Source: Pocillopora damicornis (lineage: Eukaryota). From it: DNA of 64,000 bases. Shown here piece after piece: positions 14,765 through 38,881 of this stretch; the stretch's first letter is position 1; each line of letters starts with the position of its first letter. The notes beneath the pieces were generated by a model. The model did not search any database, was not told the DNA's origin, and saw only the letters and a program-made list of their open reading frames with translations. The position numbers were made by a program, and so were the translations under genes. The DNA lies in contig NW_020845280.1 in the NCBI RefSeq assembly GCF_003704095.1, forward strand, positions 62,001 to 126,000. Reading direction: 5' to 3'.

Positions 14765-15191
14765 GGAATGCCTGCTGATAACTAATGTTTTGTAAAACAT
14801 AAGCTAATATTCCTCGTTTATATCGCTTCTATCAGATCTTTGTATGATTCATTTCCTTCATACTTGACTGGAAACGCTCGATTGCACTCTCAGTTATACA
14901 AACTTTCTAACCTCCCCTGCTTTCCCCATTTCCCTGGAATCCAACCTTGAATAATGAACTAGTTCATTTCCGTACCTGCTTGAGTTCAAACAAACTGTCG
15001 CCCGTGGACTGAATCTACTAAATTCACCAAGTGAGTAAGTAAGCTAATGGCGCTAAAATTATGTGGTCATATTTTCTCATTTGTTACAGAGGGATGTTTC
15101 TTGTGGTGATCGAAATTATTAAGCCGTCTTTTCCTTTTTAGTCTGGATGGCATTAAAATTGATATTTCTTATCTTTTTTTATTTCCCGTAG

Positions 15192-16160
15192 ATTCATCCT
15201 TTACATCTTGCAGAGAAGTCATTTTTTCTATCAGAAAAAAGGAAAAATAGAAAAGGAAATACAGTCTACATGCTCCAAACTGACATTGGTAAAATTCATT
15301 TTTACTGTCACATGAGCAGCTCTAGAATTGGAGGATGTGGAGGCAGGGAGTGGACGCTGGTTATGAAAATTGACAGCCGCAAGGTATGAAACAATAAAAC
15401 CCGACAATGATAAAGTATCACAGAATGCAATAAAATGTCCAAGTGAGATTCACAACATTGATTTATTCTCCGAGCACAATCTGAGGAATTACATAATTTC
15501 CTAATGTTAATTCCGCAAGTAACTCAAAGTTTAAAAACACACTTTCTTGGCTATTTATCTGATCACATCGTCTTCGGTCTCGCTGGGTTCTCGTTTCTGT
15601 TATCATCTCGATTTATACCAAGTATCTTATTGGAAATACAGTCAGTTGCATTGCTGATAATTAAACTCATTTTATCTCTTGAATTCAAACGAGTAAGGGT
15701 GTCCTTTAGAATTAAAATATACTCTTTCTTCTTTACTCCGATATTTTTTCTACTTTCATTTCTAGCGGGCCTTTCACTATGATTCCAGCTCCTGGACCAA
15801 CATGGCCGACTTCAATCGTCCTTGAGGGAAAACTGGGTTTGACCATCGTGAAACCAAACTACCGACCTACTGGAACACACCCTTCTCCAAGATCTGTCTG
15901 GGGATGAAGATCGGCCAGCAGATCGACCTCATTGTCATCAACAGACCGACCAAACTCCTTGTACTCGTTGATTGCTGATGGACACTACCGCTCACCATCG
16001 CAGGGTCAAAACACGTGGAAGTCGCTGATTGGTTCCCACGCTTCACTGCGAACCAACTGTAACAAGGGGTGTTTAACGTTATGCTGGCAACCGTGGTGGT
16101 TGCCAGCATAACGAGGATTGGTTGGCAACATCAAGAACGAGTGTGTGATCTGTGACTCCA
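15192..16160 (+). pseudogene. Inverted pseudogene copy of the 22454-24368 fibrinogen-like/USOMP5-type gene
   Basis: Clear nucleotide similarity to exons 2-4 of the 22.4-24.4 kb gene (SFTSCREV; [17 protein letters not shown]; [22 protein letters not shown]) with a TGA, frameshifts and a truncated end. Flanking homology continues to ~16.7 kb versus ~21.7 kb. Confidence 0.85.
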
Positions 16161-17000
16161 AACAAAGCGAAACAAGAAAAAGAAGTCAACCACTTCGGCT
16201 AAATGCGATTAATTCAGAATTCAAGTTTTTTTTTATGCAGTAAGGAAATGACAGTAAAAGCTATCACTATTAAGTAAAATGGAAAATCTCGTTTTATGTA
16301 TGTCAGTCTCCTTAGCAGCCGTTCTGGGGGAAAGTCACTCAATGCTCACCTAATAAGCGTTGCGTTACTTTCCTCAGGACTTGATATGAACGCGTGTGTG
16401 TAGCGGCTGAGTTTTTAAAGAAAAACGAGCAGATTCAAACTGTTAATCACATCAATAAGCCCATTTAATACGTATAAAAGAGATTTCCATTTCATTCGCT
16501 ATCCCAATTATCCAGTCTCTTCGGGGTGACACATGTAGCACAAACATTTCCAAGAGAACGAAGCATGGTAAAGAGATTATATCACCCGTTTGTCTGACAT
16601 TTTTATCAACTTCATGACTTCACTATCCGGTAATCTTTGCGCTTTGAGTGGGCAGAGTCGCCCAACATAAGCCATTAGGCCTTAACTGGATTGGCAATAA
16701 GTCAGGAGACTCATTTGTCTTCATTTTACCCAAGAATATACACTTCAACTGTTGTTACACCCAGATGAATGCTTTCTCTACAGTCGGTCAGGCACTATGT
16801 AATTAATAAAAGACTCAAAACAACAAACTTTGTCAGTTCATATACCTAGAGAAAGTTCGAGGGACCCCTTGATTTATCAAGATTTACTGCGCTAAGATTA
16901 NNNNNNNNNNNNNNNNNNNNNNNNNNNNNNNNNNNNNNNNNNNNNNNNNNNNNNNNNNNNNNNNNNNNNNNNNNNNNNNNNNNNNNNNNNNNNNNNNNNN

Positions 17001-18017: not shown

Positions 18018-18242
18018 CTTAACATAGTTTCATCAAGTCAAAGCAAAATGCTTAACTTATCTGTGATGAGTTATACCATTTCATGAGTTAACCTCGAGCC
18101 CGCGTCAAGTTCGAGTCCCAAGTCAAGTTCGAGTCAACTTATATTTTTCCTCTCTCTGTAAATAACATCGTAAGGCAATACACTATTATGGTAGCCGCCA
18201 CATGTAACATGGCAGTCGAGTACGAGAATTCAGCTTTTACTC
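18018..18242 (+). repeat. ~220-bp direct repeat, copy 1
   Basis: tagtttcatcaagtcaaagcaaaa...attatggtagccgcca.atgtaacatggc...ttttactc is nearly identical to 20941-21153. Confidence 0.85.
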
Positions 18243-19829
18243 TGGCTCTAGACCAAGGATCCAAAACCGAAGAGATTAATCTTAAAAAAGAAAAATCTAG
18301 AATTGTTTCCACTAGAATAGAAGAAAACATACTCTAACGCTTTGCTTGGATGACTGAAAGAAAAACGATGTTGATACGGCAATACCTTTTTTTATTAGGG
18401 AAACGTCTGCCTCAAACAGCAAGACAAACACCCGTGTCTACTTTTCTCGAAAATAAAAGAAACAAGATTGATGGAATCTTCGATTTGTAGAAATTACCAC
18501 AATAAAGTACAAGACGAAGACCATCGTAAATCGCTTTGGTCGAAGATGCAACATTTAAGTGTATGGTTGATGAAGAGAGCTTTCAAAGGGATAAGAGAAT
18601 TTTGAATTTATACTCTGCTCTCAATACATTAGCATGTTCATGCCACGCTTTAAGTTATAATATAAAAAAGACATGTTTTGTTGTTAACTGCCTTGCTTTC
18701 TGTTTGGACTGTTTCTTGGGTCCTGTTGGAGTGAATTAGCTCGAGCACCGCGCACAAAAGGGAGGCACCTGGAGTCTGTTCAGGAACTTTATTTCATTCT
18801 CTGAGTCTCTGTCTCTCTTCAGCCATAAGAAGCCGCTCTTAAATATCCTATCGGTAGGCATGATTGAGCTCACGGGAGAGGGAATATATCTTTAGAACGC
18901 CGACCCAAACAATGTCGCAAGACATTCGAAATGAACAACAAGGTACTTGAAAAACAACCGATCTTCGAGAACAAAACCCTAAACAAACTTGCCGATGAGG
19001 ACTCTAAGCAAGGACTAGGAAAAACCCAAACACGTCTAGTGATGACGATTATCGCACGATAATTAAGCCCTATTACAACGGTAAAGGACACATTACGCAA
19101 AAGGTAAAAATAAACGTGCGGTCTTGCAGCACATGATAAACCAGGGCTAATGAGACTCGCACAAGGATTTCCAGATAATCTAACTGGCCTAAACAACTCC
19201 CAAATACTTAGTCAGAACATTCCTAATTTTAATGTCTACGTTATGTTAATATTAACTGTCAAAAAGTTTGATATTTTGAGTCATGTCATTAAATTTCCAC
19301 ATAATTGCCAGCCAAGGGTCTTTGTATGCATTTTAGGAGCAGTCTTGGTCAGTTTCCAAATTGCCACATAATTAGTCTTAACGTCGGCGACGGGACAGAA
19401 ATACGGTATAAACGTGGGTTTAATGCAATGTTTTCCACATATCAAGTAACAGAAGATTTCGAGAAAAAGACAAGAGCCTATTTTCTGTTCTGGAGGCGAC
19501 TTCTGAAATTCAGTTTTCCTTATTTATAGCGTGTCATGTCATGTCATTTCAGTGTTTTGACGTGTCTTTGAAAACGCCATCATATAAATATCGCACAGTT
19601 TAACTTACCAAGATAATTATGCCGTAACACACGCTGTCATCTGTCCAGTAGACACATTTTTTGTATTTCGTTGTCTTTTCAGAAAACAGGGAAAGTATCA
19701 GATGAAACGAGGCGTCGAGTTCACATCATGTGTTGTGTTACGAAAATTATTATCTTGGCAAACGCGTACACGTTATATTTCCAAATTAACTGAATTCGTG
19801 AGTCGTTTGATGATACACCTTATTGATCT

Positions 19830-20190
19830 GGCCCCGGTTGTTCAAAAAATGGGTAACTTCTTATCTACTGGATAAATCGCTATCCAGCGGATAAATTGTA
19901 CCCCTGGTGTCATATCGGCTGTTCAGAGTGTGGATAGCGCTATGCACTCGTTATCCATGATTTGTTAGGTAGTAAGAATTTTAAACGCCGGATAAAAAAA
20001 AAACATCAACAACAAAATGGCCGCTCGACAGTTACATCTTCTTCGGTGTAACTTGCCTGACAATCAACGTCGTAGAAAGAGAAGAATTTTTCGCCACCAG
20101 CTCGATCCCTTAGAGTCTTACACTGACTCTGAATTGAGATCCAGGTATCGTTTTGGACGAGAAGCATTACAATACACCGTATCACATCGA
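19830..20190 (+). mobile_element. 5' remnant of a PIF/Harbinger transposon with truncated HARBI1-like transposase
   Basis: TIR GGCCCCGGTTGTTCAAAA followed by an ORF at 20017, RRRKRRIFRHQLDPLESYTDSELRSRYRFGRE, typical of the N-terminus of Harbinger nucleases. Similarity stops at an A-tract near 20190. Confidence 0.7.
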
Positions 20191-20517
20191 AAAAAAAAAA
20201 GCTGCGAAAATTCCCTATTGTCATTTCAAGGATGTCGGATTTGTAGTATAAAACGGAATGCGCTAAATGCCTAAAGAAAATTGACTGACTGTTGAGCGAT
20301 GACCATTGGTGACCTATTTGTCTAAATTTGTGGTGACAGCGCCCTACAGAACAATAAAACAAGCTTCAACGTTCATGCAAATGCTTTAATGTAAACTTAG
20401 TATACCCTTCCAGCATACAATTCATTTTTATTTTATTGAATAGCGGCCCATCAACAAATTTGTCGTTTAGTATGCGTTGCATGTTAGTTTTCCTACGTTA
20501 GCAGTCTACAACGAGAT

Positions 20518-20938
20518 TTTTTGCGCATCAGGTCACAGGACAAGTAGGATGTCGCTGCACAGGTTCTGTTATTCAAGTAACCGTTTGCTCTGAATGGCAT
20601 AAAGGAAGTATGCCCAGTCCACACGAGGCTTCAGGGTTCCCGGGACTTCCCATTCGGTTCATTTAGAGCCCAGGCCTTGAAGACTGGAACTGAGTAATCA
20701 CTCTAAAAGAAGTCGTTTGCGGTCCACATCAGGCCGATCCACATTTACTTCCTTGTTGGTGCTCTCTCTCTCTCACAGGGGCCAGAACAAACTCGTTTTC
20801 CCGCGCACTGGTAATCTTTACCAGGCCTTCTCCCATTCTTTTGCAATGCATTTGGGCATGGTGCCAAGTCATGTATACGTTGCACGAGAAAAAATTTTTA
20901 GTCGGGATTGTGGGATTGAAGAACCCTATTGGAGACCC
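20518..20938 (-). pseudogene. C-type lectin domain pseudogene
   Basis: One frame reads MTWHHAQMHCKRMGEGLVKITSARENEFV...K*MWIGLMWTANDFF*SDYSVPVFKAWALNEPNGKSREP*...NGYLNNRTC. WIGL and EPN motifs are present, with stops at positions expected to be W and C. Confidence 0.85.
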
Positions 20939-20940
20939 TC

Positions 20941-21153
20941 TTAATATAGTTTCATCAAGTCAAAGCAAAAACTTAAACTTATCTGTGATGAGTTATATCA
21001 TTTCACCGGTCAAGTTCGAGCCTGAGTCAAGTTCGAGTCAACTTTACATTTTTACCCTCTTTGTAAAATTATATCGTAAGGCAATACACTGTACATTATG
21101 GTAGCCGCCATATGTAACATGGCGGTTGAGTACAATAAATCAGTGTTTTACTC
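20941..21153 (+). repeat. ~220-bp direct repeat, copy 2
   Basis: Matches 18018-18242. Confidence 0.85.
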
Positions 21154-22453
21154 CGTGACTCGACGGTTTGTCGTTAAATAATGACTCCTGCCTCAGGTGT
21201 GTGTAATCAAAAAGGAGACGGAATCTTTGAAGGAAACTCAAAGGTACCTTGGAATGTTTACTCCTATGAATGCAGCTGTGAATCAGTGCAGAGTTAGCCC
21301 TGACAAACTTTCAAATGATTGTAATCTTGTAATAGAGCTTTTGTATTAGGAAAACATAAATGTCCACCATTTGGCAAGCTGTTAGGGAAGACTCAATAGT
21401 TTTATTTAATGAGGTGTATAAACCGAAAAGCTTGTTGTTTTGAATCTTGTAGTTGTTTCCTAGTTCCTTGCCTACTGTAGAGAACTCAAGTTCGGACTGA
21501 TCACCTTCTTGTTACAAATAAAGGCTTTGTTCATACTAGCTACAGTATTCTTCCTTTTCGATGAGTTTTTTCTGCAAAGTGGGTCCAGATAACCAATCTA
21601 AAGCGATTGTATTAAATTTCTGCTGACATCTGTGCCTCGGTGATAAAAATAACAATTATTTGACAATGGCAAATGACTGAGTCTTTTGACTAATTGCTAA
21701 TCCAATTATGGCCCAGCGGCTTATGTTGGACAGCCCGTTAATTTAAAAGCTTTATGACCCAAAAGAGGGCGGAGAGGCTAGATTGTAAGCGACGCCTAAA
21801 GTGACATCAAATACCTATAAAAAGTGTCACGCAAATTGCATGGATGATTTGTTGTCCGTACCAAGCTTCGCTCTCTTCGAAATGTTCGCACGTTAAATGT
21901 ATCGTCCCAAGAAAATGGAATGATTGGGATATTGAATAAAGCCGTGGAAATATCAATGACTTTTTTATAGATTAAATAGAGAATAATACATGGGTGCACG
22001 TAGATATGGAATTTCTCTTGGAGTGTTTGACTCGATATCTCACGAGTGAGTGCTACTGACAAGAAAAGTCGTCTTAATTGGTGCGAAAGGCGAATGATGT
22101 GTTACCAGCTGATTTGCTATGTAAAACACACTTAAAGCATCATCGTAATTTTACGTATGTGCAGTCACGGCTTTATTCGGGGTTGTAAATTCATGTAAAG
22201 CACCGCAGTTTATATGGTAAATGGGATTTATTCATGTGATTAACGGTTGAAATCTGCTCGTCCACCAGCCGTTCTATGGAAGGTAACATAACGCTTCTTG
22301 GATAATCGTTTCGTGACTTCCTCAGAACAGCTGCAAGATTTGCCATTTTACTTGATATTTGTAGCTTTTACTGTCATTTCCTTACTGGATAAAAAAGTTA
22401 TCGAATACTTTATGAATCACATTTAGAGAAGTGGCTAACTTCCTTTTCTTGTT

Positions 22454-24368
22454 TCACTGGACCAGGATGTAACCCATGGCTTTGATGTGCTTGTCACCAT
22501 TATCCGCGTTGTGAGTAGCCTGGTTACCACACGTATTGGAGTTATCGCGATATCCTCCTGTTCCAAACCCAATCCTCGAGTCACAGGACCCACAGTTCTT
22601 CTCGTTGTTGCCAAGGATACCAATCCTCGCTTTAGAAGAACCACGGTTACCAGGAAAAACGTTAAACCCTTGCTTGTTACAGTTGGTTTGCAGTGAAGCT
22701 CGGAAACCAATCAGCGACTTCCACGTGTTTCGATCCAGTGAGGTTGAGCGGTAGTGTCCATCAGCAATCAGCGAGTACAAGGAGTTGGCTGGTCTGTTGA
22801 TGACAATGAAGTTGATCTGATGGCCGATCTTCATACCCAGACAGATCTTGGAAAAGGGTGTGCTCCAGTAGGTCGGTAGTTTGGTTTCACGATGGTCAAA
22901 CCCAGTTTTCCCTCCAGGACGATTGAAGTCGGCCATGTTGGTCCAATAACTGGAATCGTAATGGAAGGTTTGCTAGTAATGAAAAAAGTGAGAAACCCTT
23001 TATTTTGGCGATCAAAAGTACGCCATTATTAGACTTATCTGGTACAGTCCACCTGTTACCACCGGACTGACGAGGGACCAAGGGGTCTGACCGTTTTTCG
23101 TTTAGGAGCATGTGATAGATATAATATCAAGAGAAAACAAACGCTTCTTTGAAATGGTCTTGGAAAAATTGAGAGCAAAGTACCAAATCTTTCAGTCATA
23201 TTGTGACCTATTTTAGGTTTAAAACCTGGAGAAGAAAAATTTCCTATAAATGCAAACTACAACGTTATATTGCATTATTGTGTCGCACCTTATGGCCGTC
23301 GATTTTCATGACCAGCGTCCACCCCCCACCTCCGCATCCTCCAATTCCATGGCTGGTCATGTGACAGTAAACAGGAATTTTACCAGTGTTAGTCTGAAGC
23401 CAGTAGGCTGTGTTTCCTCGAGATCTGTCATTAAAGCATAAAAAGAAATGTTGCCTCTTACAGATGAGCTTACGAAGACTTGAATTATTTCGGCTGAGAC
23501 AAAACAGTGCCTGTGTCCCATGCTAAGGCATAGCTTCGTTCGTTTCTTATTTATAGTTGTTCAAATGCTGTTATCTAAATAATTGGATAGTTTTATCTTT
23601 GTGAACGTTCTCAGATACCCGTCGCTAAAGAATTACGCATGGTTATGAGCTTGCGTAACAAAGCGAGAGGAAGAAATGTACCAAATTGAGACAAAGAATT
23701 ATGGACACGGGATGCTTAATAAACTTTTCCCTGTCTCCCTCCCAAAGAAAATCCTTTTTGCAATCTAGTTTACAGTGAAAGTATTTTCGTTGTCATTTCC
23801 TTTGTTGACCCAACCATGAGAATCATTCCGACACCAAAACGTCTGTTATTTTTATATAAATCTTAACTTGCTGCTGTCCTTAAGGCCTTTACTCTCTATT
23901 TCACATTTGCTTGAGTTTTTCTTATTTATTTCTTCCAAATTGGAAAATGAATTATACGTCGGAAAGTAGAATAATACTCAATTTGTATGTTTATAATTAC
24001 CTTCCGTTTTTGAGGTGAATCTCTTTGCAAGATGTAAAAGGTGAAGCTTTGAGAAATAAAGTAACATCAAAATTAATGCCATCCAAAACAGAAAAAAAAA
24101 AGAGAGAAATACTTTTCTTTAGTAAACGCCGGCAAAGGAACCTTTAAATGAGAAGCGGGTATAATCAGCATCATTAATTATTGACGTTCCTCATACCTGG
24201 AGGATTCAAGAGATTCAGTCCACGAGCTATCACTTCTATATCGCGTTCAAGTTTTCCGAACCTTTTGTCCATTACTGCCTTAAGCGTTTGAATGGCTTTA
24301 GTGCAGTTGTCCCGGCGTTCGTACGCTGCAGTAACTGTGAAAAAAAGAATGAAGATCTTTGCAAACAT
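22454..24368 (-). CDS. Secreted protein with fibrinogen/intelectin-like N-terminal motif and coral USOMP5-type C-terminal domain (4 exons)
   Basis: Exons 24368-24197 (signal peptide [15 protein letters not shown] plus coiled coil), 24046-24001, 23424-23289 and 22972-22454 join in frame with GT-AG sites. Motifs SCKEI, VYCHM...[70 protein letters not shown]. Confidence 0.85.
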
Positions 24369-24624
24369 GAGTACCAGAAAAAACGGAGTATTGATGAGCG
24401 AATTCATCTCAGCTCGCTGTCACAGCCCTGAGCTACAATACGAACTTTGCAGAATGAGATCACCTCCTGTTTGTCAAGCTTTTAACTCGTGTCAAGACTT
24501 CCTTGCTCGTATGGGATACATATGTCACGCCGAGGAAACTTAAAACCTTTCTTAATGGTTTTAATGAATTAAAAGGCCTCTCCGTGGGTCTTATGCGAGC
24601 TGTTTCTCGTCAAGAGTTTATTCA

Positions 24625-24985
24625 TGTGCAACCCTTGAAATCTCCTACTTGGCCAATTCTTTCAGCAAAGTCCGCTTTGATCTTATAGTAGCCTTAGGGG
24701 AATCATCTACCTGATAAAATCAAGAAAAAACGAGAGGGTCAATGCCCTGATCATGAGCAGATTTTTAAATAATTTTATGTGTGCTTTTTCCCATCTCAGT
24801 CTTTGATACCACGTATGTCAAATAAAAACAAAAACCAAACCAAACAAAACAAAGCAAAACTCCCTAAAAAAACAAAAACGGGAAATATATGGCATTTCAC
24901 GAGGTTCAGCAATCCGCTGCAATCTCCTAATCAAATAATGCTATGAGCAAAGTTCACTCTGTTCTGATGATAGCCTAGGGAAGGG
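24625..24985 (-). promoter_or_regulatory. Two copies of an upstream module shared with the 28655 gene
   Basis: Reverse complements of 24625-24746 and 24893-24985 align with 27848-27985 and 28290-28435; see findings. Confidence 0.55.
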
Positions 24986-25196
24986 GGAAAGGGGAAAAAA
25001 TGTAAAATAGACCTAACATTAAAAAACATATTTTTTCTTACGAAAGGGAGATTTCGTCACTACCTTTTAGTGGTTTGAAATAATTCCAAGTGAGCTGTTC
25101 AGTTCCCTTTTCCGCGATACTACTCACTCTAGAAAAACAGGAAGTATACTGCATTTCACGAGATTCAGCAATGTATAAAAGTCATGTGTGCTCAAA

Positions 25197-25733
25197 GGGC
25201 TGATTTATACGGTACAACTTTGTCACATGCGACAAGCTTGCGACCGGCCTACATGACGTGCGCAATATTTTCACCGACGACGTGCCAAAGTCGCGAACAA
25301 TTCCCCTCCCTCTTAAAGTATTCATTGTCTCGGATATTGAACAGGACATTTTTTTCGCCACTTCACAGCGAAACTAAGTTCTCTGTGTCATCTTCCTAAA
25401 GTGTTAAATGCACTTTTGTTGCATTCAACGACTAACCAACGACGGCAACTTTGTCCCCCATTTTGATGCAAGAAACACAAAATGTTAACTATTACAGAAA
25501 CCTTCTCAAATCAACTCAACTCTACTTAACTCAATGGAAATTTGTCACAAAATGCGTCATTTTTATGGATTTCGGCTGCGATTGTCGCAGCGTTTTAAAA
25601 CATGATTTTTAAACCTACGAAATTTTTTGAGATACATGCGACAGTCGTAAGCGAGTTGCAAGTTTGATTTACACGAAAAAAATTCGTTGTAGGCCTATCG
25701 CAAGCGACAAAGTCGTACCGTATAAGCCGGCGT
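25197..25733. mobile_element. MITE, Harbinger-like
   Basis: Inverted ends GGGCTGATTTATACGGTACAACTTTGTC / GACAAAGTCGTACCGTATAAGCCGGCG. Confidence 0.6.
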
Positions 25734-26139
25734 TAAGACATTTCTTCGAGCAAAGTCTGGTTAGATCTCATGGCAGCCAATGATCCAATAAAATCAAGAA
25801 AGAAGGCGGGAACAAACAGAACAGATAGTTCGTTAGTTGATGTGTATTCACAAAACGTAGTGATTTATGGTAAAATAGTTTCTTTTTTTTTAGCGACACC
25901 TTGGCAAGGATTATGCAGTTTTTTCAAAATAGTGTGCATTCGGTAGTGATAGAGCTTTTTGTTCGAAAAACGTAAATGTCCACCATTCGACAACCTGTCG
26001 GGGAAGACACCTCTATGATGAGCTTTTTGAGTCACTCACACAATAAGTCTTAAGTATTTTCTGATAACTGCCGAACATAAACTTCATCAGATCAGTCAGT
26101 GAAAAAAAACACCGAATATGCGTTACAATGCCCAACTTT

Positions 26140-26335
26140 ATTTGACTATGCAGCATTGTTACAGTCTACTGGTTGACTTAGCCTCAGGGAAGAGTTTCAT
26201 CTCCTCTTTACTATGCAGCATTATTACAATCTACTGGTTGACTCAGGTTCAGAGAAGAGTTTCATCTCCTCTTTACTATGCAGCACTGTTACAATCTACT
26301 GGTTTACTCAAGCTCAGAGAAGAGTTTCCTCTCAT
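26140..26335. repeat. About three tandem copies of a ~63-bp unit downstream of the inverted gene copy
   Basis: actatgcagca...tacaatctactggtt.actc...agagaagagttc units; one copy lies in reverse orientation at ~31040-31100. Confidence 0.75.
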
Positions 26336-26357
26336 CTCGCGCGCTGAGCAGGGCGTG

Positions 26358-26498
26358 CTAGACCCAAGAGATTGCTACCTTGCAGAGACCAGTGCCAGAC
26401 CTATGTGGACCACTTATGACACGGTTCATGCTAAGCCATATGTCAGTCGCGGTAGACGGGGGCGTCCCAATGAGCTGTCCACTTAGTTGAAACAGGTA
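26358..26498 (-). CDS. Partial inverted paralog (3' end of last exon) of the 28655-31014 secreted protein; remainder lost in the N gap
   Basis: YLFQLSGQLIGTPPSTATDIWLSMNRVISGPHRSGTGLCKVAISWV* differs at only 4 residues from the C-terminus of ORF 30592-31014. Confidence 0.7.
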   Translation of the reverse strand, partial: YLFQLSGQLIGTPPSTATDIWLSMNRVISGPHRSGTGLCKVAISWV

Positions 26499-27847
26499 NN
26501 NNNNNNNNNNNNNNNNNNNNNNNNNNNNNNNNNNNNNNNNNNNNNNNNNNNNNNNNNNNNNNNNNNNNNNNNNNNNNNNNNNNNNNNNNNNNNNNNNNTC
26601 TTTTCTTCTCAAGTTGTTACAACGGGGACTAACTCCTATCTAATGAGAAAAGAGAGGGTCACCGTTTATAGAGGTGACACTGCAGATGACACTACTAAGC
26701 TGTCAACCTTCTTGTATCGTCATCGTTCCATCTCAGCCAGCGAATCATGTAAGATTACGTGTGACAGTTCCTGCTTACTAGGTATGCGCCTTCGACTTAT
26801 TTGCACAGTTACAAAATAATTTTCTACCCTAAATTTCTTATTCTTACAGTTGAGATCGGTCAGAACAGAAACGAAATTGGTAATATAAAAATCATAACTA
26901 ACCTATTGACAGAATGATATTCACATCTGAAGGGGTATCTTAAGAGAAAATTGCCTTAGAAGACCATTACATAACAACATCATGATTAGAAAAGTTGGAG
27001 AAGAAGGGGCGTTCACAAGTACCGCCCCCAAGTTGCTACGTGCTAGATAACTAGCTAAACATGAAGGGTATTACATGTTTACACCTTTAAGAACGAGAGG
27101 TGTCGAACGTGACCTTTTACCAGAGAGATTCACTCTTCCTGGATTAACAAACGAGTTCTAATTACCGTAGAAACTGACTTCCTGGATTAACAAATTAACT
27201 TAATTAATAACATAGCTTTCCCAAGACACTATCACGAGTTCTAATTACCGTAGAAACTGAACAACCGTTTCCATGTCAATTTCACGATCATAACGAGAAA
27301 AACGTGACCAAACTCTACCTTTAAGATAGGACTTCCAAAAGGAATAAGAAGTAACCAACCTGCCTTTTTATAACTTTTGCAGGAATGGTTTAAAGTAATA
27401 TAATATTTCCATTCCTTTCCCCGACACCAATACAAAGAAACCGTTACGATATTTCAGATTAAATATAGTTATATTTTTATCGTTTCACACGTGTAACAAT
27501 TGCCAGATTTCAAACTTTTTTGGGTTTCAAATAAAATCGTTTTAAAGAAAAAAAAGTATTATTTTGGACAACTGATTATCTACTCAATTTGTTCCCTCAT
27601 CAGTTTCTTGATTTCATCGGATCGTTGCCCGCAAACTTCCTTGAGATCTAACCGGACTTTTCCCGAAGAAATGTATTAGAGCAGGAAAAAACAAGGCCTC
27701 GCGAAATACAATACACTCCCTGTTTTCAAAACATAGATAGTATCAATGAAACGGGAAACAGTTCGCACGTATTATTTTCAAACCATTAGAAGGTAATTCA
27801 ATCATCGTTTTGATCAGAAAAATACCTTCATGAGTTTTTAGGTATCT

Positions 27848-28553
27848 ATTTCATTTGCCCCTCGTTTTCTCGCGATTTTATCGGCAGATGATCTCCCTCA
27901 GGCTGCAATCAATTAAGAACGAACTGTGCTTGTATAATTGTTTGAGTATGAGATTTCAAACGGGATTGCTGAATCTCGTACCTACTTGTTATGGGCGGGA
28001 CGGGAACCAGCTCGCGTGAAAATATTTCAGACAGCTAGAATTCAGCATGGAATTTTTTTTGACTGAAAATAATCTTTTTGACGAACGTGCTATCAACGAG
28101 ACAGGAAAAAGCTCACACGCAATGAAGCAATTCGCTTAAGACATTATTGTTTAGTTCACAAAACATGTTTTGGCATTAGTCGTGTCGTCCTAACATGGAA
28201 ATATATTTTAAACCATAAAAATGAAGCAACGAATCTCCTCTTGATCAAAACAAATTTTATCCTTTTAGATTGGTAGCCATCTATTTTGTTTGCCTTCTCG
28301 TTTTCTCTTGATTTTGATTTGCTGTATATTTATATTTCAGTGAGACTGCTTTCGGGTCAAAGTGTACTTTGCTGTCAGAAATGTTTGAGTATAACATTTC
28401 AATGGATTGGTGAATCTCGTGACATACATGTTAGTTCCTGTGTATCATGATATGCGAACGAGGAATTAAACATGAGACAACAGGAAAGACGTTTCAACTT
28501 GAAAGTTTATACAATGACTCGTGGGCGTGATGGAAAAGTTGATGCATATAAAA
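27848..28553 (+). promoter_or_regulatory. Two copies of the shared upstream module plus a TATA box
   Basis: Modules at 27848-27985 and 28290-28435; TATAAAA at ~28547, about 110 bp before the ATG. Confidence 0.55.
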
Positions 28554-28654
28554 GCGAGCGCCACGTAACTTTTGAGGCGTATTCCCAACCATTCAGCAGA
28601 CATCAGTCTTGAGAGCTCGTGGTTTAATAAGCAGTCTTCCTCAGTCTACCGAGA

Positions 28655-31014
28655 TGATCACACTTCATCTTGCGATAACTCTTTATATTGTCTTGACCAG
28701 CTTGAGCGCCTTCACAGGTATCACACTAATTCACTCTGGCCACTAATCCACTTTGGTCTGCTTTTGTTTTATTATTGACAATTTTTTAGTAATTATTTTC
28801 TTAGTTTGTCTCTTCTCTTAAATTTTCTTAAGTCTTGATGACTCTGTCTTTCTATTTCATGCGAGATCGAACAACACAAGTTGCTCCTTCAGAATTCAAA
28901 ACTCGTTAACTCGTTCAATATTTTCTGCAATTATTCTTGCTCACTCTACAGAGGTCCGCTGAAATTCTTCACCATCATATCGAAAGCTAGTTCATAAAAG
29001 CAAATCTCGTCCTTAATTTATAAATTCCATTGTATTGCCATTTTGTTTGATCGAGAGAAAAAGGAGGGAAGTTTAGTTACTGCTACAGATTCCCTTCCGT
29101 ACCCTTTATCCATTCAAACAAAAAAAAAAAAAAAAAAAACTATCGCAACCTCAGAGGAGATGAAGAACGCATTTCCGTTTTTCCTTGATAGCTTCGAGTT
29201 GTTTAAGCTGTAGTCAGCCCAGAGATCCGCGTAGTCCTGTACTCCAAGTGGATCTAAAGACGAACGCAGTTTACGGTAATGATGCCAACATCGCTTGGGA
29301 GGACCATTTGAACGTGAAGCCAGGAGTTTGTACAAACCAAGGTAGGAAATAACAAAATCAGTTTAGTACCAAGAAAAACATAGTCTGAACACCGTGATAT
29401 TTACTGTCAATTACTTTGACGCTGTCCGACGCGTTGGAAGTTTCTTTTGAAAAACTGTTGCAATCCAGAGTCTTTAGGATGTGCCAGAATTTGTAAATAA
29501 GAGCCTAACTGACATCATTTTACTTAAATTGATTAAGGCATTTTTTAAAAAACTAAATTTGTAATAACTTGTAATTTACAGGTAAGCTTCGAATAAGTTT
29601 TGACCCAAGAAGTGGCTCCAAACGAACTGCTAAGTTTGACGTGATCTGATGCGTTAGATGTTTCATTATAAAAACTTTTATTATTTAAAGTCTTTAGGAT
29701 GTGCCCGAGTTTAGAGTTAAGAGTTTAAATTGAAATGAACTTAACTGAATAACTAACTTAACTTACGTGTGTCACGGTTCAAATTACTAGTAAAATGCTT
29801 TTTACATTATATTCTTAACTTACTTGAAATTCACAGGAAAGATTCGCATAACATTTGATAAATGTTGGGGCTCCAAACGAACCGCCAGGATTGACCTGTG
29901 GTTTGCGGCTCAAGTGACAGGATTCTCGTTTGATATTGCCGACTCGCCCACTGTCAATGGATATGGTAAGAGAAGAGACTTGACATTGACATGGCACTGC
30001 ATAGGAGTAAAACATCTTTTTTAATGCTCTATAAAAGCTTTATGCTTCACTCTTGTTTAAGGAAAACAAACTATTGAAATACATATGAGACTGAAGTTAC
30101 CAACACGTTGCACATGAATAAAAGCATTGTGCTTTGGAAATTCAATGGAGACATGGGTTCACGGTGCATCAGGATTTCACGTGCTTCAATTTCTCCTTTC
30201 TTCTCTTTTTCCTTGTAGGTGGCGACGCGGGAACAACTACTAAAGGCGCAGAGGTACATGGCCTCAATAAAAATTTTTTAATATTTACCAACGATTTCAC
30301 NNNNNNNNNNNNNNNNNNNNNNNNNNNNNNNNNNNNNNNNNNNNNNNNNNNNNNNNNNNNNNNNNNNNNNNNNNNNNNNNNNNNNNNNNNNNNNNNNNNN
30401 AAGAGACTTGACATTGACATGGCACTGTATAGGAGTAAAACATCTTTTTTAATGCACTATAAGAGCTTGATACTTCACTCTTGTTTTAGGAAAACAAACT
30501 ATTGAAATACATCTGAGACTGAAGTTACCAATACGTTGCACATGAATAAAAGCAATGTTCTTTGGATATTTAAGGGGAACATGGGTTCACGGTGCATCAG
30601 GATTTCGCGTGCTTCAATTTCTCCTTTCTTCTCTTTTTCCTTGTAGGAGGCGACGCGGGAACAACTACTAAAGCCGCAGAGGTACATGGCCTCAATAAAA
30701 ATTTTTTAATATTTACCAACGATTTCACTGGTCACGAGGACTACACCACTAATGGTCACCTGACGGTTGAATCCAAAGAAAAAGTCATCAGCGATCACAT
30801 GACGATTTACATCAGCCATGAGCGTGTGGAAGTGACCAATTACCGCGGCTATCAAGCCGTGTACGACAGCACATACCTGTTTCAACTAAGTGGACAGCTC
30901 AATGGGACACCCCCGTCTACCGCGACCGACATATGGCTGAGCATGAACCGTGTTATACACGGTACATATAGGTCTGGCACTGGTCTCTGCAAGGTAGCGA
31001 TCTCCTGGGTCTAG
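28655..31014 (+). CDS. Uncharacterised secreted, beta-rich protein of ~235 aa (4 exons)
   Basis: Exons ~28655-28717 (signal peptide MITLHLAITLYIVLTSLSAFT), 29192-29341, 29837-29965 and ~30648-31014, all joined by phase-1 GT-AG introns. Motifs FDIADSPTVNGYGGDAGTT..AAEV and MNRVI.G..RSGTGLC. Confidence 0.75.
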
Positions 31015-32302
31015 CACGCCCTGTCTAGAAAGCGAGAGGAAATGAAACTCTCCTCTGAGCTTGAGTCAACCAGTAGATTGTAACAATGCTGCGTAGTAAA
31101 ATAAAGTTGTGCATTGTAATACATCTTAAGGTTTTTTTTTTGTTCACGTGCTGCTACTCGCATGTGCGAGGTCATTTCAAGCTCCAGGTTTACTTTGCAA
31201 AGGTTTCTTTTTTTTTTTCACCGCACTTTTCTTATTTGAAAATGTTTCTACTCCCAACTTTTTATATAATCTTACCTTTCTCTGCCAGAAAATTCACCAA
31301 GGAGAAATTAGTCAGCCTTGATCGTAACTTTGAACACGGATTTTCCTTTCTCTGAATATGTAATCAATAACTCACTTGATCAAGATGAAATTTATATTCA
31401 AGCTTATCACACTATTTGACAACCTATGTTTAGGTTATCCACTTTCCCCAACAGAACTTTGACAACCAAAGAAATTGTGACTCGGTATGGCGTGACTTTT
31501 CATTTTAAAATATGAATTTGTTTTTCTTAAAGCTAAATTATAACAGATTACTCAGTGATTAGATTAATCGATTACCAATACTTGCATTAATAAAAGTTTC
31601 CCTTCAAATTTAATTTGTGATCAATTGAAATTCACAGAAAAGCTTTGCGTAACATTCAATAGTTTAATAGCTGTACAGAAACAGAATGACCTCTTCAACG
31701 GAATCCCTTCAGCACTGCTGCATGACCTGTATAATTTCCTTTTCATACTCGTTGTCGGCCGTCAGGAATAGCCCAAAAACAAACATTACATATCACTAAA
31801 CTGGGTAAGTTTACGAACAAACTGTGGTGTTTCGCCCTGACGAAGGGCTACGCTTTAGAACCTTTTCGTAATAGCCAATTTATACTTTCATCTAACAGGA
31901 TAAAACCAAATTGTCTTAACAAACAAACAAACAAACAATCAAAATGAATCAAAGCATTAAGTCTGAGGTTGGAAGACAGGTTACAAATTAATCTTACACT
32001 TTCTTGGTCATCCCAAAAGTTTGATATTAATTATCTTCCCATCCAATATCAATTCTACCTTAACCAATTCTGCTAACAATATAGAGAGACTCTTGGTAAG
32101 TTACTGCCCATAATCCATGGAACACTGACACCACTCATGGGATACTGACAGCACCCAGGAAGAAAGAAATGAAATTAACTTAAATCTAAGAATAGGATAG
32201 GAGGCAGGGACTTTACATCCTTGAGCATTTCCCAACAACAAAGCAAAGACAAATTCTCTAGCAGCAAATTGTTTTAATACATTGTGAAGGAGTTTTTACA
32301 CA

Positions 32303-35300
32303 TCACACTTTCATCTCCTTGATCTTGGCCTTTTCCAGCTTGTGTGCAGCTGCCTGTGACTTGCTGCCCATGATGCCCCCGCCCCAGTGTTTTCTGATCT
32401 CATCAAACCGCTCATTGAAGTTAGTCTTGACTGCCTCGCAGAGGTTCGTAAAGTTATTCTTGTCTTCAGGACGTACAGCAGTAAAACACAGTACTGTGGC
32501 GGTCTTCTTGTGTACTACTTTGCCCAGCCTACAGACAGGAATAAATAAAGACAATCTAAGTCACTACCTTTAATTTAAAGTAGAAGTTTACTTCTGAACC
32601 CTTGAATTTTTATCTCTGGAGTTTAGAAATGTATATTGTGACACCAGCCTTGTTTTGAAGTTCCAAAGAGTAACCAAGCCTTTTAAGAATTGCTTTGAAA
32701 TAGGCTTCAGATTTCACTATGATGCTACCATTTCAAGTTTCATTTGGTAAAATGGCTGCCTAGGTGTGATACAACCAAGTCTTGCTCTTTTTATTTAAAC
32801 ACCTAAACATATGTCTGATTAATCATATAAGCTACAAAAAAGACATTCTTTAATGATTTCTTCAATGTTCAGAGCAGGAACTACTTATGCACTGCTTGTT
32901 ACTGCTTTGAGTGTGCCATCAGGTTGCAGTATTGCTTGAAAACATAGCACCATCCAGAATAGAAGGTTTTTGCACATTTCAAAGCAATTTTGACAGGTTA
33001 GGTTAGTCTTTTGAACCTCATAAATGGTAAGAAAAGCACCATGTTATTTCTGCTTTTAATCATATGAAGAAGAACCAGTGCATATAGTATGATGATCAAT
33101 TGAAGAGTTTTAAAGAAATCATCCTTTGCGAAGGTAAAATCTGAGAGTTGCTTGTCCAAGAGACAAACTGTAAATGAATTCTGTTGTCAAACCATCAGTA
33201 GTTTTGATAAGTTTCAAAATCATCCTGACACCTTTGCCACCTGCTGTCAACTCAACATCTTATAAAATATTGTCCCTATTCACTGCCCATTTCTATTTCA
33301 AACTCATTCAGACCTAATAATCTCTAAATGATACTAATTGTCTGATGCAAAGCAGTAACTGCTCCAAGACAAATACAATGAAAGAAATTGCAATAGAAGA
33401 AAGAAGGATCTGTATCATGGGCTTTGGAATGGTCTTTGGTTTATAATAACATCACTCACCTGGCTTTGCCCTTTATGATACAATAAGGAACACCCATTTT
33501 CCTGCACAGAGCTGGAAGCCACACAACAAGCTGTAAAATGAACAGGTCACATACTCTCTTAGTGCCTCTGTTTGAAATGGGAAAACATTATTTGTTCACT
33601 CATTTTGATAAATCCGAAAATCAAATATTTCTTCAAAGTGATACTTCCTATAACTATGAACTTTCACTTGACAGTGAAACAGCCTCCAAAAATCATACCT
33701 AAAACCAAGGTTTATTCAGCAAAACCTCACTGGAAGGAAACTCTACAACTCCTTTTGATAAACTTCTAACAGAGTCATTCAATGATATGGAAAGCAATTT
33801 TTGGAAAATTAAAAGTAAACTTATTGACAGTTACAAACCACTGATAACAAGCACAAGGGGTAAAATCAATCATTTTCCAATTAGAATTTGTGCTAAAACA
33901 AGTTTTAGTCTTTAACACACTCTCAAGAAAATTCTTACTAACCTCAATGGGGTCTACATCATGAGCAATGACCACAAGTTGAGCTTTCTTGTTCTCTACA
34001 AGACTGGTCACATGATTCAGACCATATTTGATCACAACTGGCTTCTTTCCCGCAGGTTCTTCTTTACCCTCTGCTTTCTTTTCAGCCTTAGCAGTAAGAC
34101 GAGCTTTCTTCTCAGCCTTGGTCTCTGGGCGATACTTGTGCATCAGTTTGAAAAGCTGGGTGGCTAGACAAAATAAAAAAAATTAAACAAAATTTTTGGT
34201 TTTAAATACTTAAAGCTACTCTCAATGGCTTAAAATGGTACTACTATATTACTATTTCAGTAGGAGTTATATTCTTGAACAGGAGTAATGTGTAAGAAAA
34301 TCTGTTGTCAAAAAGTATGCTTAGTAGCATAACACTTTAACTAGTTTGAGTTTCCCATGAAATAAAGGTACAGATGATTTCTCTTTGCTTAGGTCTAAAA
34401 ATTTGTGTTCCTTCTAGAGAGGCATCACTGACACAAGGTTTCACTGAATAAAATGTTGCCCATACCAGTCTGTTTATCCAATGTCTGAGTGAACTGATTG
34501 ATAGAAGGAGGAACTTTCAAACGCTGGTAGAGAACACTCCTTTGCCTTTGAAGTCTGATGTATTTTGGCCATCGGACAAATCTGCTCAAATCACGTTTGG
34601 GCTGGATATCCCCACCTAGAAGTCAAAGGGAAATTGAAATTAAATAGCAGATTATAACCTTTAGTAATGAAGATTAGGTATTATTCTTTAAAAACCTTCC
34701 TTTTTTAAGGGTAATTCATGAGCTCCCAAGGTAAGGTTTGAAGAAGAATATGAATTTCCAAGCAAAATCACACAACAAACAAGGATTGTTTCTGAGCATT
34801 AAAAATGAGCTTATCTAAGAGATCATTACAATTATTTGTTAACTGAGGGGTCTTCATAACTACAAAGGTTAAAGTAATTTTTTTGGTTGCAATGCTTTCA
34901 ATCCTTGCAGTCATTAGCTCTCATGATCCCATGGGTCACCAGATGGAAACTATGTTACTGTGAACTATAGGCTTAAATCTACTTTATCTTACTCCTTAAT
35001 TAAAGAGACAGAAGTGAATATGGTTTTTGAGTGCAGGGAATTGAGGACCACCATTTCACTACATTGTACAAGTATGCATATTTGTATTACTTATAAAAAC
35101 TTTGAATCACACATTCTACAATCACCCTTTCCTACATCATTTAACCTTCACATTTAGAAATGAACACTACAAAAAACACAAAAATTAGACTTGAGTAAAC
35201 CAACATAAAATTGGTTTTGCTGTTTGATAGGGTTATCATCTTACCTATGCCAAAATTCCTTGGCCGTTTTTCAATGAGTGGATTAACAACCTTTTTTGGC

Positions 35301-36082
35301 ACTGGTTTGGATGTGGTGTAAGGGGCTGGTGCCACCTTCTTTACCCTTTTAGTTTTAGGCTGCAGAATCAACATAATAGAATACATTGCAATTTTGTTCA
35401 TACACCAAACTGGATTAATTTACTTGCACAGTATCAAGAAAAGTAATGTAGTAAGAGTTATGAGTAATTGTGACCCTAAAGAAATGCATAAAAATAAGCT
35501 ACTGAAAAATATTAAAATATTCTACTAGATAATATTCACCACAACCTTTAAGTTGCCAGATAACTCTGGAAAGATATGACAACAAACTAATAAATGTTGA
35601 TAACCTTATGCATTTCTACGTTTCCAAATGCTCAATATGTTTCGAGAAATAAAAAAACTAAAGTACAAGAAAACCACACGAGACATCATTACCCATAGAT
35701 CTCACGTGCAAAATAATTTCTACAGAATTATTACAGACGAAAACAATTCGGCACAAAAACTGTCATTAGGTAGGCAGAAAGATGTACACTACAACATTAA
35801 TTTTGATAAGAGATAGCAACAAGCAAGATGGTGGTACAACTGACAGTACGTGGGTTAAAGGGGGTTTAGAGAGACCGTCTCAGTCCAAGACGATAAATCA
35901 TGGAGCATACCACGAAATATTGCTAAATGAAGCTCTTTTCACTGAAAATAAGAGAAAATAGATCGCCACAAATACCGTCCACATACTGGACCCTCGTTTA
36001 TTAGTCCTTAAGAAGTAAACAAATGTAAGATGGACTAGATGGAAGATAGCTTTTAATACAATAATTCGAAAAGACTTACCAT
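32303..36082 (-). CDS. RPL7A: 60S ribosomal protein L7a (eL8, Surf-3)
   Basis: Exons 36082-36080 (ATG only), 35359-35245, 34615-34466, 34163-33943, 33530-33460 and 32528-32303. Motifs [57 protein letters not shown]. Confidence 0.97.
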
Positions 36083-36240
36083 CTTTTTCGATGGCGGATG
36101 AAGAGGAAAGTTGCAAAGGCGCTTGGGAATTTTATCATGCTACCCACAATGCTAGGCGTGGCAATGGGGAAACAAAATGGCCGACAAAGCTCCGTGGTTT
36201 GATCCAGAATAATTGAAATCACAGGACATTTTAGGTAAGT
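36083..36240. promoter_or_regulatory. RPL7A/MED22 bidirectional promoter with 5'TOP tract, two Staf/ZNF143-like sites and a YY1-like motif
   Basis: CTTTCCTCTTC on minus at 36110-36100; TACCCACAATGCTAGGCG at 36141-36158 (+); AAAATTCCCAAGCGCCTTTGC on minus at ~36134-36113; AAAATGGCCG at 36174-36183. Confidence 0.7.
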
Positions 36241-36336
36241 TATGCTTAAATTTGGTTTAAATTAGTTACAACCCATCGCAATATTTACTTGAGAAATTCA
36301 AAACTATTAATCTTGTGCTGCTGTTGCAGGAGAATC

Positions 36337-37914
36337 ATGTCACAGCCAAGCAGGATTTTACCACAAAGTAAAGAGACTCTTCTCAAGTCTTACACCAAAC
36401 GTTTGAAAGATGACGTGAAGTCGATTCTGGATAACTTTACTGAAATCGTTAAATCTTCAAAAGTACGTATATGGATAAAGTATAACGATTACTTGAAGCT
36501 TTTACTTGGAGGCTGGCTAATTTATGGAAATTGATGGTCGCTGAATCAGCATCAATAAACAGGAACAATCTATCGATCGTAGAGCATTCAAGCGATGAAA
36601 TCGATAGTTGACGACAGTTTTGATCAATTCCTAGTTGATTATGGTAACCAATAACCAATCCATGGCAATGCGATTTCCTATTGAGTGATTGGAATTTGTG
36701 CGAGTCTGAGAGTATACAAGCCAATGACAGTTGGTGCTCTAATTAAAAAAATGCATAATTTATTACATGGCTACCCATTTTAAATATATCAGAGAAGATG
36801 ATATACAGAACAGAAACTGTGTGTAGTGCACAGGTCATGAAAGAAAAACTGTTGGCTGAAGTGTTTCCTCAAAAAGCAATGAACTTTCCATTAATTTAAC
36901 AGAAGGCCTTCTTTCTGGTTTCTTTCATCAGTGAAAACTTAATGATCTACAGTGTTTTATTTTTCACATCATAAAATTGATACTAATAAGGTTTGCATCA
37001 TTTATAGGTTGAAGATGAAACTCAGGTATCACGACTGACTCAGTCAGCCCAAGATCAGTACGAAGTGAATGTCAGGGCTGCCAATATTGTAAGTTCAAAC
37101 TACCAATTATCATTTTAGGCTCATCAAAATGAGTACTGTAGTTGATAGTTGAATAATTATTAAAATGCAAACAGCTTAGCTAGCTAACATTCTTAAGTTC
37201 ACTGGAGCTGTGACTGTTTTGCGTATTCAAAATATTTTAGCCCTCTGACCCTTAGGAGTGTCCAGCATCTAATTTCTTGTCACAAAACCACCCCCAAATC
37301 ACATGTTAAGGTCATGAGAACAAAGGAGATGATCACCAACTAAATAAGCTCTTGATTGTCAAACAAAGTTCCCTTGTCAGCCCCCCTAGAAGAGAGCAGT
37401 AAGGAGAATACATACTGATGTTTGGGTGCTTAAAAATTGATCCATGATTGTGAGTGGATTTAAGAAACATTGACCCATCCTCACAATAAATAAGATTGAA
37501 AACTAGAAATTATCTTTACTTGTTAACTCACCTGGAGCCATTTGCTTGTACCGGTACCTGATTTTAGTTCTCACTGGTTCCCTGTGGCTTTGTTATCATG
37601 GCAGTTGTGATCACTTTGGTTTTTGATTTATTAAAGGAAATTGGAAAGGGCCTTGATAAGGTTGATATTATAACCCTATTGTTTCCTTTTTGCAGGTTAG
37701 GGCAGGAGAATCTCTTTTGAAACTGGTTTCAGATATGAAAGAGTTTTTAATCTTGAACGACTTTCCATCTGTAAATGCCACCATCTCTGAACGAAGCAGC
37801 ACTCTTCAAGAGATGACAAATCAGACAGATCAAAAACTGTTAAACCTTAAACAAGAACTTGCTCTTAATTTATATGAACTGGAACAATCATACTACTCAT
37901 CTAGTTATAGATAA
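36337..37914 (+). CDS. MED22: Mediator subunit 22 (Surf-5)
   Basis: Exons 36337-36462, 37008-37088 and 37696-37914 give [37 protein letters not shown]...[33 protein letters not shown]...[12 protein letters not shown] probable non-coding first exon ends at ~36234 (AG/GTAAG). Confidence 0.96.
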
Positions 37915-38881
37915 TGTGCACAATATTGTAAGCCATTAGATGTGTCTTTGTTCTGTGTGTCATTCTTGAATATAATCCCTGCATGTAAATAATTCTCTAG
38001 TGCACAGACAAGTTGGTTGGTGCTTACCAAAACATAAGATACTAAGATTCTAGAAAAAATTTGTGTAAGAGTTAACCATAAATCAGAACAAGAGCTTTAT
38101 TTTAGCATACATGTTACACTGGAAATTACTTCCACTGCTGATGAGGTGTGCACAGCTCTTCAGGATGAATGGAGCACCATGACTATAAGAAAATTCCCAG
38201 AAATTCCTGTTCAATCTCTCATGGAATTCAATTAACCATCTACCATAAATTAAAAGCTTGTATTCAACAGCTGTGTCTCACTTGTTCTCAGTTTTCTCTG
38301 GGGAGGAGTGGATGAGGGGTATAGAGAGGAACATGAGGAAGAGAAAAATTAAAGAAAATTTCCATTCTAACAATTGCCTTAGTTCCTCTCCAATGTTCCT
38401 CATACATAAAACATGTAGAAACATATTTGAAAGGTTTCTGAACAAGGTAGAGATAACTATTTTCACACTTAGGAATACATTTTTTAAAAATTTTTGTTGT
38501 CAGTAGAAAATGAGTTTAAGTATGATACATCTGATCATTTTGTAGACAAAGAAGAGACATTGTTGGCTGGGTAAAACTTTATTCAACTTTTAATGTTACA
38601 GAACATAAAACTATTCAAAAGGTAAAGTACAATTTCTAACAATATGAAGAGTAGTTTAAAAGTTGTCAATGACAACTAAAAGAAACTTTACATGAGACAT
38701 TGAGTCTAAAAAGCAACATCTGTTAGACAGACCTAGCTGCATTAAAACCTTACATAAGGAGACAAAGCTCTAAACATAGATAACTGTGGCATTACCTAAG
38801 AGAGTCAGTGGAGAAAAAAGCAGTTCGTGGTGCCACCTTATAAATCCCTGACTTGTGCCCGTGGGTATCACAAAAGCCTCA

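Follow-up and report, generated by a model that had tools for sequence, protein, structure and literature searches.

We describe here a 64,000-nucleotide window of the Pocillopora damicornis genome (NCBI RefSeq assembly GCF_003704095.1, contig NW_020845280.1, positions 62,001 to 126,000 of the forward strand; all coordinates below are those of the window), in which a USOMP5-like gene (gene 1) and a lectin-fold gene (gene 2) are each preceded by an arm, that is an upstream block of ~0.8-0.9 kb made of three tandem repeat units. The units are called L1, L2 and L3 in the left arm (minus strand) and R1, R2 and R3 in the right arm (plus strand). We conclude that this is a real feature which probably arose by one local duplication and is probably a case of promoter capture, its regulatory function being predicted. 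The genes and arms are organised as follows.

22454..24407, minus: gene 1, USOMP5-like, 303 amino acids, four exons (~24407-24197, 24046-24001, 23424-23289 and 22972-22454, from RNA joints)
24405..24545, minus: putative core promoter of the USOMP5-like gene with its 5' untranslated region (UTR) and, at 24485, a TATA-like box
24560..24770, minus: L3, proximal to the USOMP5-like gene (profile); a splice acceptor in use lies at its 5' end (AG ending at 24711)
24774..25030, minus: L2 with its tail (profile), inside the intron of long-leader transcripts
25032..25196, minus: 3' half of L1 (alignment, profile), with a splice donor at 25064/25063
25197..25733, no strand: 537-bp element with terminal inverted repeats, inside L1 (inverted-repeat scan, alignment)
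25736..25843, minus: 5' half of L1 (self-comparison, profile)
27562..27822, plus: R1, sister of L1 (profile)
27828..28120, plus: R2 with a doubled tail, of which 28074-28120 aligns with the L2 tail (alignment, profile)
28262..28499, plus: R3, proximal to the lectin-fold gene (profile)
28510..28656, plus: putative core promoter of the lectin-fold gene with its 5' UTR and, at 28547, a TATA box
28654..30300, plus: gene 2, lectin-fold family, 236-amino-acid type; exons 28654-28717, 29192-29341 and 29837-29965, start of exon 4 at 30219-30300 (RNA, protein comparison)

Gene 1 matches XP_027043753.1, a P. damicornis protein named USOMP5-like, and its three introns are confirmed by RNA contigs, two of them in 3/3 runs and one in 2/3. 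In the assembly, gene 2 is identical to XP_027043752.1 / pdam_00007819 (uncharacterized), an annotation that a preliminary description of the locus had overlooked, and its introns are supported by RNA contigs in some runs. The two coding sequences are unrelated, as that description had stated, and belong to different families. By eye the two genes had seemed to share a signal-peptide exon; this was rejected, the DNA of the two signal peptides being unlike (257/500 and 388/500 shuffles as good).

Three repeat units upstream of each gene

The preliminary description had reported two units of ~100-150 bp upstream of each gene. The four stretches that it named are indeed homologous, but the count is three per side, 27562-27822 and 25843-25736 having been missed. 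The unit including its tail measures ~210-270 bp, and the spacers between units are also homologous across the arms. What had been described as a fragment at 25173-25151 is real homology; it lies in the 3' half of a third left unit, L1, cut by the 537-bp element. Comparison of the window with itself pairs 24635-24737 with 27858-27959, 24894-24961 with 28358-28425, 25734-25827 with 27577-27678, and 25061-25162 with 27698-27795. A profile of the three left units recovers the three right units at E 1e-23 to 1e-19, and the right-unit profile recovers four left pieces at E 2e-18 to 8e-14.

Spacers included, the arms are collinear: 793 nt on the left (insert excised) align with 918 nt on the right with a score of 303, compared with a mean of 38.7 and a maximum of 58 for 30 shuffles. 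L1 and R1, the distal units of the two arms, are sisters, grouped at 97/97 in the tree and identical at 180/268 columns (~67%), while the other unit pairs are 50-62% identical. The homologous spacers and the shared unit order therefore indicate one duplicated upstream block and not four insertions, and the pairing of L1 with R1 suggests that the triplication is likely older than the single duplication of the whole block. The distance from the last unit to the ATG is also nearly equal, 141 nt in the left arm and 147 nt in the right. All units point toward the adjacent gene in the assembly, as first described; because there was one duplication, this orientation counts as one observation and not four. 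Homology past unit 1 or 3' of gene 2 reaches low scores of 24-33, for which no null was computed.

Beyond the arms, no further copy was detected by the unit profile in the 64-kb window (best E 2.6), and a 17-nt unit motif has four occurrences there, every one inside the arms, against 0.27 expected. The weaker match formerly placed before a pseudogene, at 14808-14850, did not hold up: it gave no profile match up to E 10, and 187/500 shuffles score as well. The inverted-repeat scan of the window found no inverted repeats bounding the unit, and no independent insertion flanks were seen, in agreement with the earlier observation that the unit carries neither terminal inverted repeats nor a target-site duplication. 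A dispersed repeat family of at least seven pieces (at 1943, 10008, 12440, 12949, 37246, 40927 and 53996) contrasts with this purely local unit.

The sole transposon-like part of the coral block is the insert interrupting L1. Its terminal inverted repeats are 40 nt long and 80% complementary, and its 3-bp flanks, AAA and TAA, differ by one base. Excising the insert together with one 3-bp flank gives back a continuous L1-R1 alignment. The DNA contig depth is 196 in the insert bin versus ~11 nearby, which is a hint only. It is likely a miniature inverted-repeat transposable element (MITE) of the PIF/Harbinger type, elements that carry terminal inverted repeats and a 3-bp TWA target-site duplication.

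Properties of the unit, core promoters and transcripts

The region 24400-28700 gave no Rfam match up to E 5. The conserved columns of the unit are not clustered overall (P 0.15). One 12-column block, TCTTGATTTTAT, is better kept than column permutations (P 0.002), a value that is biased and inflated because L2 is gapped there. An ACTTTG core is a putative HNF4-type site. The ratio of observed to expected CpG is 1.12 in the right arm and 0.70 in the left arm, versus 0.54 in the window. Unit-only bins have DNA contig depths of 8.5-11.6, like single-copy DNA at 90% likeness, which is a hint and not a copy number. A search of prokaryote genomes with a 20-nt unit pattern returned 8 matches in bacteria or archaea, close to the number estimated for chance.

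When the unit-free stretches leading up to the two ATGs (141 and 147 nt) were aligned globally, only 1-5 of 2176 controls, which were real ATG-ending stretches, did better, and this held in 5/5 scoring schemes. Some RNA contigs traverse the left arm spliced from L1 to L3: the joint 25060/24706, seen in 3/3 runs, corresponds to an intron 25063-24711 that has its donor in the L1 tail and a pyrimidine-tract acceptor at the L3 start. The long leader of gene 1 contains three upstream ATGs. RNA contigs also span 26146-25060 in 2/3 runs. This coverage is consistent with read-through from a lectin 3' end, and a cross-gene contig does not prove a single transcript. The RNA contig depths of the two genes are very different; they cannot rank the genes and were not used. 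In run X15, a low-depth contig joins the L3 acceptor region (24711) to a cryptic acceptor at 24336, which falls within the signal-peptide sequence of gene 1, and thereby skips the start codons.

Layout of the locus and origin of the arms

The two genes had been described as divergent. They are not neighbours, being separated by the minus-strand 3' end of a lectin-family gene and by an assembly gap, and the divergent orientation is probably an artefact of a flipped contig. The features that bear on this are the following.

26102..26498, minus: terminal (3') part of a lectin-family gene, with its stop codon near 26358 and its poly(A) signal at 26142; this is probably where gene 2 truly ends
26499..26598, no strand: 100-N assembly gap, left border
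30301..30400, no strand: 100-N assembly gap, right border, with 328-bp copies of 94.5% identity on its flanks
30647..31014, plus: assigned by the public model to gene 2 as its exon 4; probably the final exon of a second, 239-amino-acid paralog

The right arm and exons 1-3 of gene 2 stand on the contig 26599-30300 between these two gaps. In 3/4 aligned full-length proteins (from P. verrucosa, P. meandrina and a Logan transcript) the 236-amino-acid N-terminus is paired with the C-terminus encoded at 26498-26358, and the exception is the P. damicornis assembly's own model. The plus-strand C-terminus matches exactly one of three 239-amino-acid paralog proteins, and a second shares its HGTY motif. 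If the contig is flipped, exon 4 lacks 145 nt, which fall in the left gap, and the 328-bp duplicate at the right gap is accounted for and no longer needed. On these comparisons it is rather likely that contig 26599-30300 was flipped in the assembly; a real inversion between paralogs is possible. Flipped or not, a lectin gene ends directly upstream of the left arm on the strand of gene 1. The public model pdam_00007819 / XP_027043752.1 is probably a chimera of two paralogs across the assembly gap, which matters in practice. Extra decayed copies of lectin exon 3 with its acceptor, at 29415-29898 (intron 2) and 31625-31660 (downstream), are signs of repeated local duplication, and a 65-bp stretch of the lectin 3' UTR (26142-26337) is a tandem triplicate in the minus-strand copy and single in the plus-strand copy.

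The six repeats are two copies of one three-unit block, and on balance we lean toward a local duplication in the lectin cluster that left one copy as the promoter of the USOMP5-like gene. A ~260-bp unit would have been triplicated upstream of a lectin-fold gene, and this promoter would then have been duplicated in tandem with its gene. A deletion or recombination with its breakpoint near the start codon would have taken out the second lectin coding region, bringing the USOMP5-like exons under the promoter copy, and the inverted-repeat element would have inserted in L1 later. In truth the genes would likely be arranged head-to-tail, in the order right arm, lectin gene, left arm and USOMP5-like gene. 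The units are predicted to serve as arrays of binding sites upstream of TATA-type core promoters. Of the promoter capture proposed in the preliminary description, one local event survives, involving the whole upstream block and probably the core promoter; the portable cassette and the small regulon are not supported. The direction from the lectin gene to the USOMP5-like gene is favoured by the tandem position, by the signal exon, which in lectins is conserved as far as Montipora, and by the order of P. meandrina accessions, which alternate lectin, gene 1 and lectin (CAH3037851, ..853 and ..855; an accession order, not a map). It is also favoured by an anchored test against three other-coral lectin promoters, in which 5-6/500 controls equalled the 300 bp upstream of gene 2, compared with 283-284/500 for gene 1.

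Several results weigh against this explanation, above all against its direction, which is poorly constrained. The anchored test gave 152-177/500 with 450 bp and a marginal 27-30/500 with 150 bp. In 18 related loci the unit profile had no match below E 6, and a profile of seven other-coral lectin upstream regions, several of them near-identical, gave no match in the window (best E 1.8); these upstream nulls carry little weight, because the introns do not align at that distance. The branching of L2, L3, R2 and R3 is weak (52/33). The similarity of the core promoters across the arms is weak: the alignment ends used with the 2176 controls were chosen after inspection, local alignment was mostly non-significant (9 to 1516/2176 controls as good), and local similarity was at chance in shuffles (269/500 as good). 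In an RNA contig of run X16, the lectin 5' UTR is matched from 28583 with at least 255 unlike letters upstream, and a paralog may use another promoter. The contig flip is an inference, and the intron markers, which are common to the paralogs, leave the contig orientation undecided. Finally, the coiled coil of gene 1 exon 1 has relatives in Oculina and is native to its own family, so that any switch point would lie near the start codon.

The same single duplication could have copied a block that is (nearly) inert, an old tandem junk sequence upstream of two genes with short core promoters of their own, the splicing in the left arm being read-through noise. In favour of this account are the low identity of the units (50-67%), their numerous indels and the insert in L1, as well as the absence of overall clustering of conserved columns, the upstream ATGs of the long leader and the chance-level local similarity of the core promoters. 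The retention of three units in both arms at a nearly constant distance from the ATG argues against it, together with the well-kept 12-column block, inflated as its P value is, and the raised CpG ratios, and we consider it rather unlikely. Distinctly unlikely is a duplication that ran the other way or drew on a third source, with the block native to the USOMP5-like or another gene and acquired by the lectin gene. It would agree with the failure to detect the unit upstream of the seven other-coral lectin homologs and with the RNA contig that differs upstream of 28583. Set against it are the lectin 3' end, located where a tandem array predicts it, the weak anchored likeness to other-coral lectin promoters on the gene 2 side only, and the broken copy of gene 1, which has no upstream unit, although it also lacks most of exon 1.

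The proposal of a portable enhancer cassette, or of an old transposon family, standing before secreted-protein genes genome-wide and forming a small regulon, is very unlikely. All six units do face a signal-peptide gene, and the search covered the 64-kb window, so that distant copies at 60-75% identity elsewhere are possible; the shared spacers and order, the sister pairing of L1 with R1, the lack of bounding inverted repeats and of another copy in ~60 kb of the window, and (as a hint) the single-copy-like depth of unit-only contigs speak against it. Also distinctly unlikely is an extended reading in which selection has preserved the triple unit as an array of enhancers that pocilloporids captured once and that placed USOMP5 under a lectin programme, with additional copies acting on other secreted genes elsewhere; here the USOMP5 protein is regarded as fibrinogen-like, the programme as secretory or defensive, and the lectin-fold family as abundant and new. 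Scarcely credible, lastly, is a dead protein-coding exon, tandemly repeated with its splice sites. L3 starts with a pyrimidine tract and a used AG acceptor, L1 and R1 end donor-like, and one window of 36 columns shows period 3 (p 0.0056); yet this is 1/17 windows, the others having p >=0.13, synonymous counts favour no frame consistently, and the 39-nt core gave P 0.37, so that the candidate was rejected. A derivation of the unit from exon 1 of gene 1 was likewise rejected, as the two showed no similarity.

Known systems, gene families and neighbouring features

Enhancers spread by transposons, through exaptation of MITEs or long terminal repeats, place related sequence upstream of unrelated genes. 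The coral unit differs from these in having no terminal repeats, no independent flanks and no dispersed copies in the window. The closer likeness is to regulatory shuffling in flies, where, according to Rogers, Shao and Thornton (2017; PMC5460883), local duplication ignoring gene boundaries puts a 5' region before the exons of another gene, sometimes with a secondary deletion, and 24/76 chimeras were upregulated compared with 5/66 whole-gene copies. Those cases are young polymorphisms with a measured change of expression; the coral block is old (~67% identity), its effect is predicted, and it apparently has no shared coding sequence. Nourmohammad and Lassig (2011; PMC3188502) similarly derive neighbouring regulatory sequence from tandem duplication followed by divergence, for binding sites within ~50 bp, compared with a coral unit of ~260 bp with putative sites. 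Regulatory shuffling by local duplication is thus already known, and this locus is probably a further case, in a coral; since flies and other animals already provide examples of the mechanism, the conceptual advance is modest. Provided that the block is active, the locus would be a compact natural experiment in a reef coral, in which a single promoter serves two unrelated secreted cargoes and a relative lacking the promoter lies close by, and comparison of the six units yields a short list of candidate cnidarian binding motifs. In PMC12019164, Usomp5 isoforms shift in opposite directions during regeneration, a result that does not bear on this locus. A full-text literature search, with subscription papers mostly outside its scope, found no paper on the locus, and the gene ids were not found in the supplements of PMC13581030 and PMC11701869, where other ids may be used.

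The family of gene 1 is large (2182 representatives at E 0.001); the gene has no Pfam family, and a PDB sequence search gave nothing usable. Two coral lectin homologs that were scanned also have no Pfam family. A structure model of a Montipora homolog of gene 2, from 66 sequences, has a predicted local distance difference test score (pLDDT) of 83.8. It resembles concanavalin A (ConA)-like sandwiches (best Z 10.2, root-mean-square deviation 3.0, 142 aligned, the next matches tied within 1), and L-type lectins are prominent in the Foldseek list, at a template modelling (TM) score of about 0.4. The gene 2 family is thus predicted to have a ConA-like (jelly-roll) fold, 'lectin' being a source label joined to this fold resemblance. 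Of the candidate lectin loci, 0/71 in genome contigs and 0/6 in viral contigs were confirmed. Distant relatives of gene 2 (24-30% identity) occur in GC-rich, bacterial-looking contigs, and some relatives carry an N-terminal collagen stretch, a layout like that of collectins and ficolins. A P. verrucosa lectin paralog (P0001, P0119) has a signal peptide unlike those of its sisters, possibly through a leader-exon swap. A lectin-family promoter of another coral (L004:2-358) has a 175-bp tandem duplication of its own, 86% identical, and another locus (L014:210-770) has a degenerate upstream array with a period of about 90 bp.

Two further features of the window complete its description.

14996..16290, plus: broken inverted copy of gene 1, with no unit detected upstream
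32300-37915, by eye: putative ribosomal protein L7a gene on the minus strand and, head-to-head with it, a putative MED22-like gene on the plus strand

The broken copy (15127-16847 versus 21412-24103) includes ~1 kb of downstream flank that is 72-86% identical, and a contig of run X15 joins 18184 to 21095 across a direct repeat. The arrangement of L7a and MED22 recalls the vertebrate Surfeit cluster.

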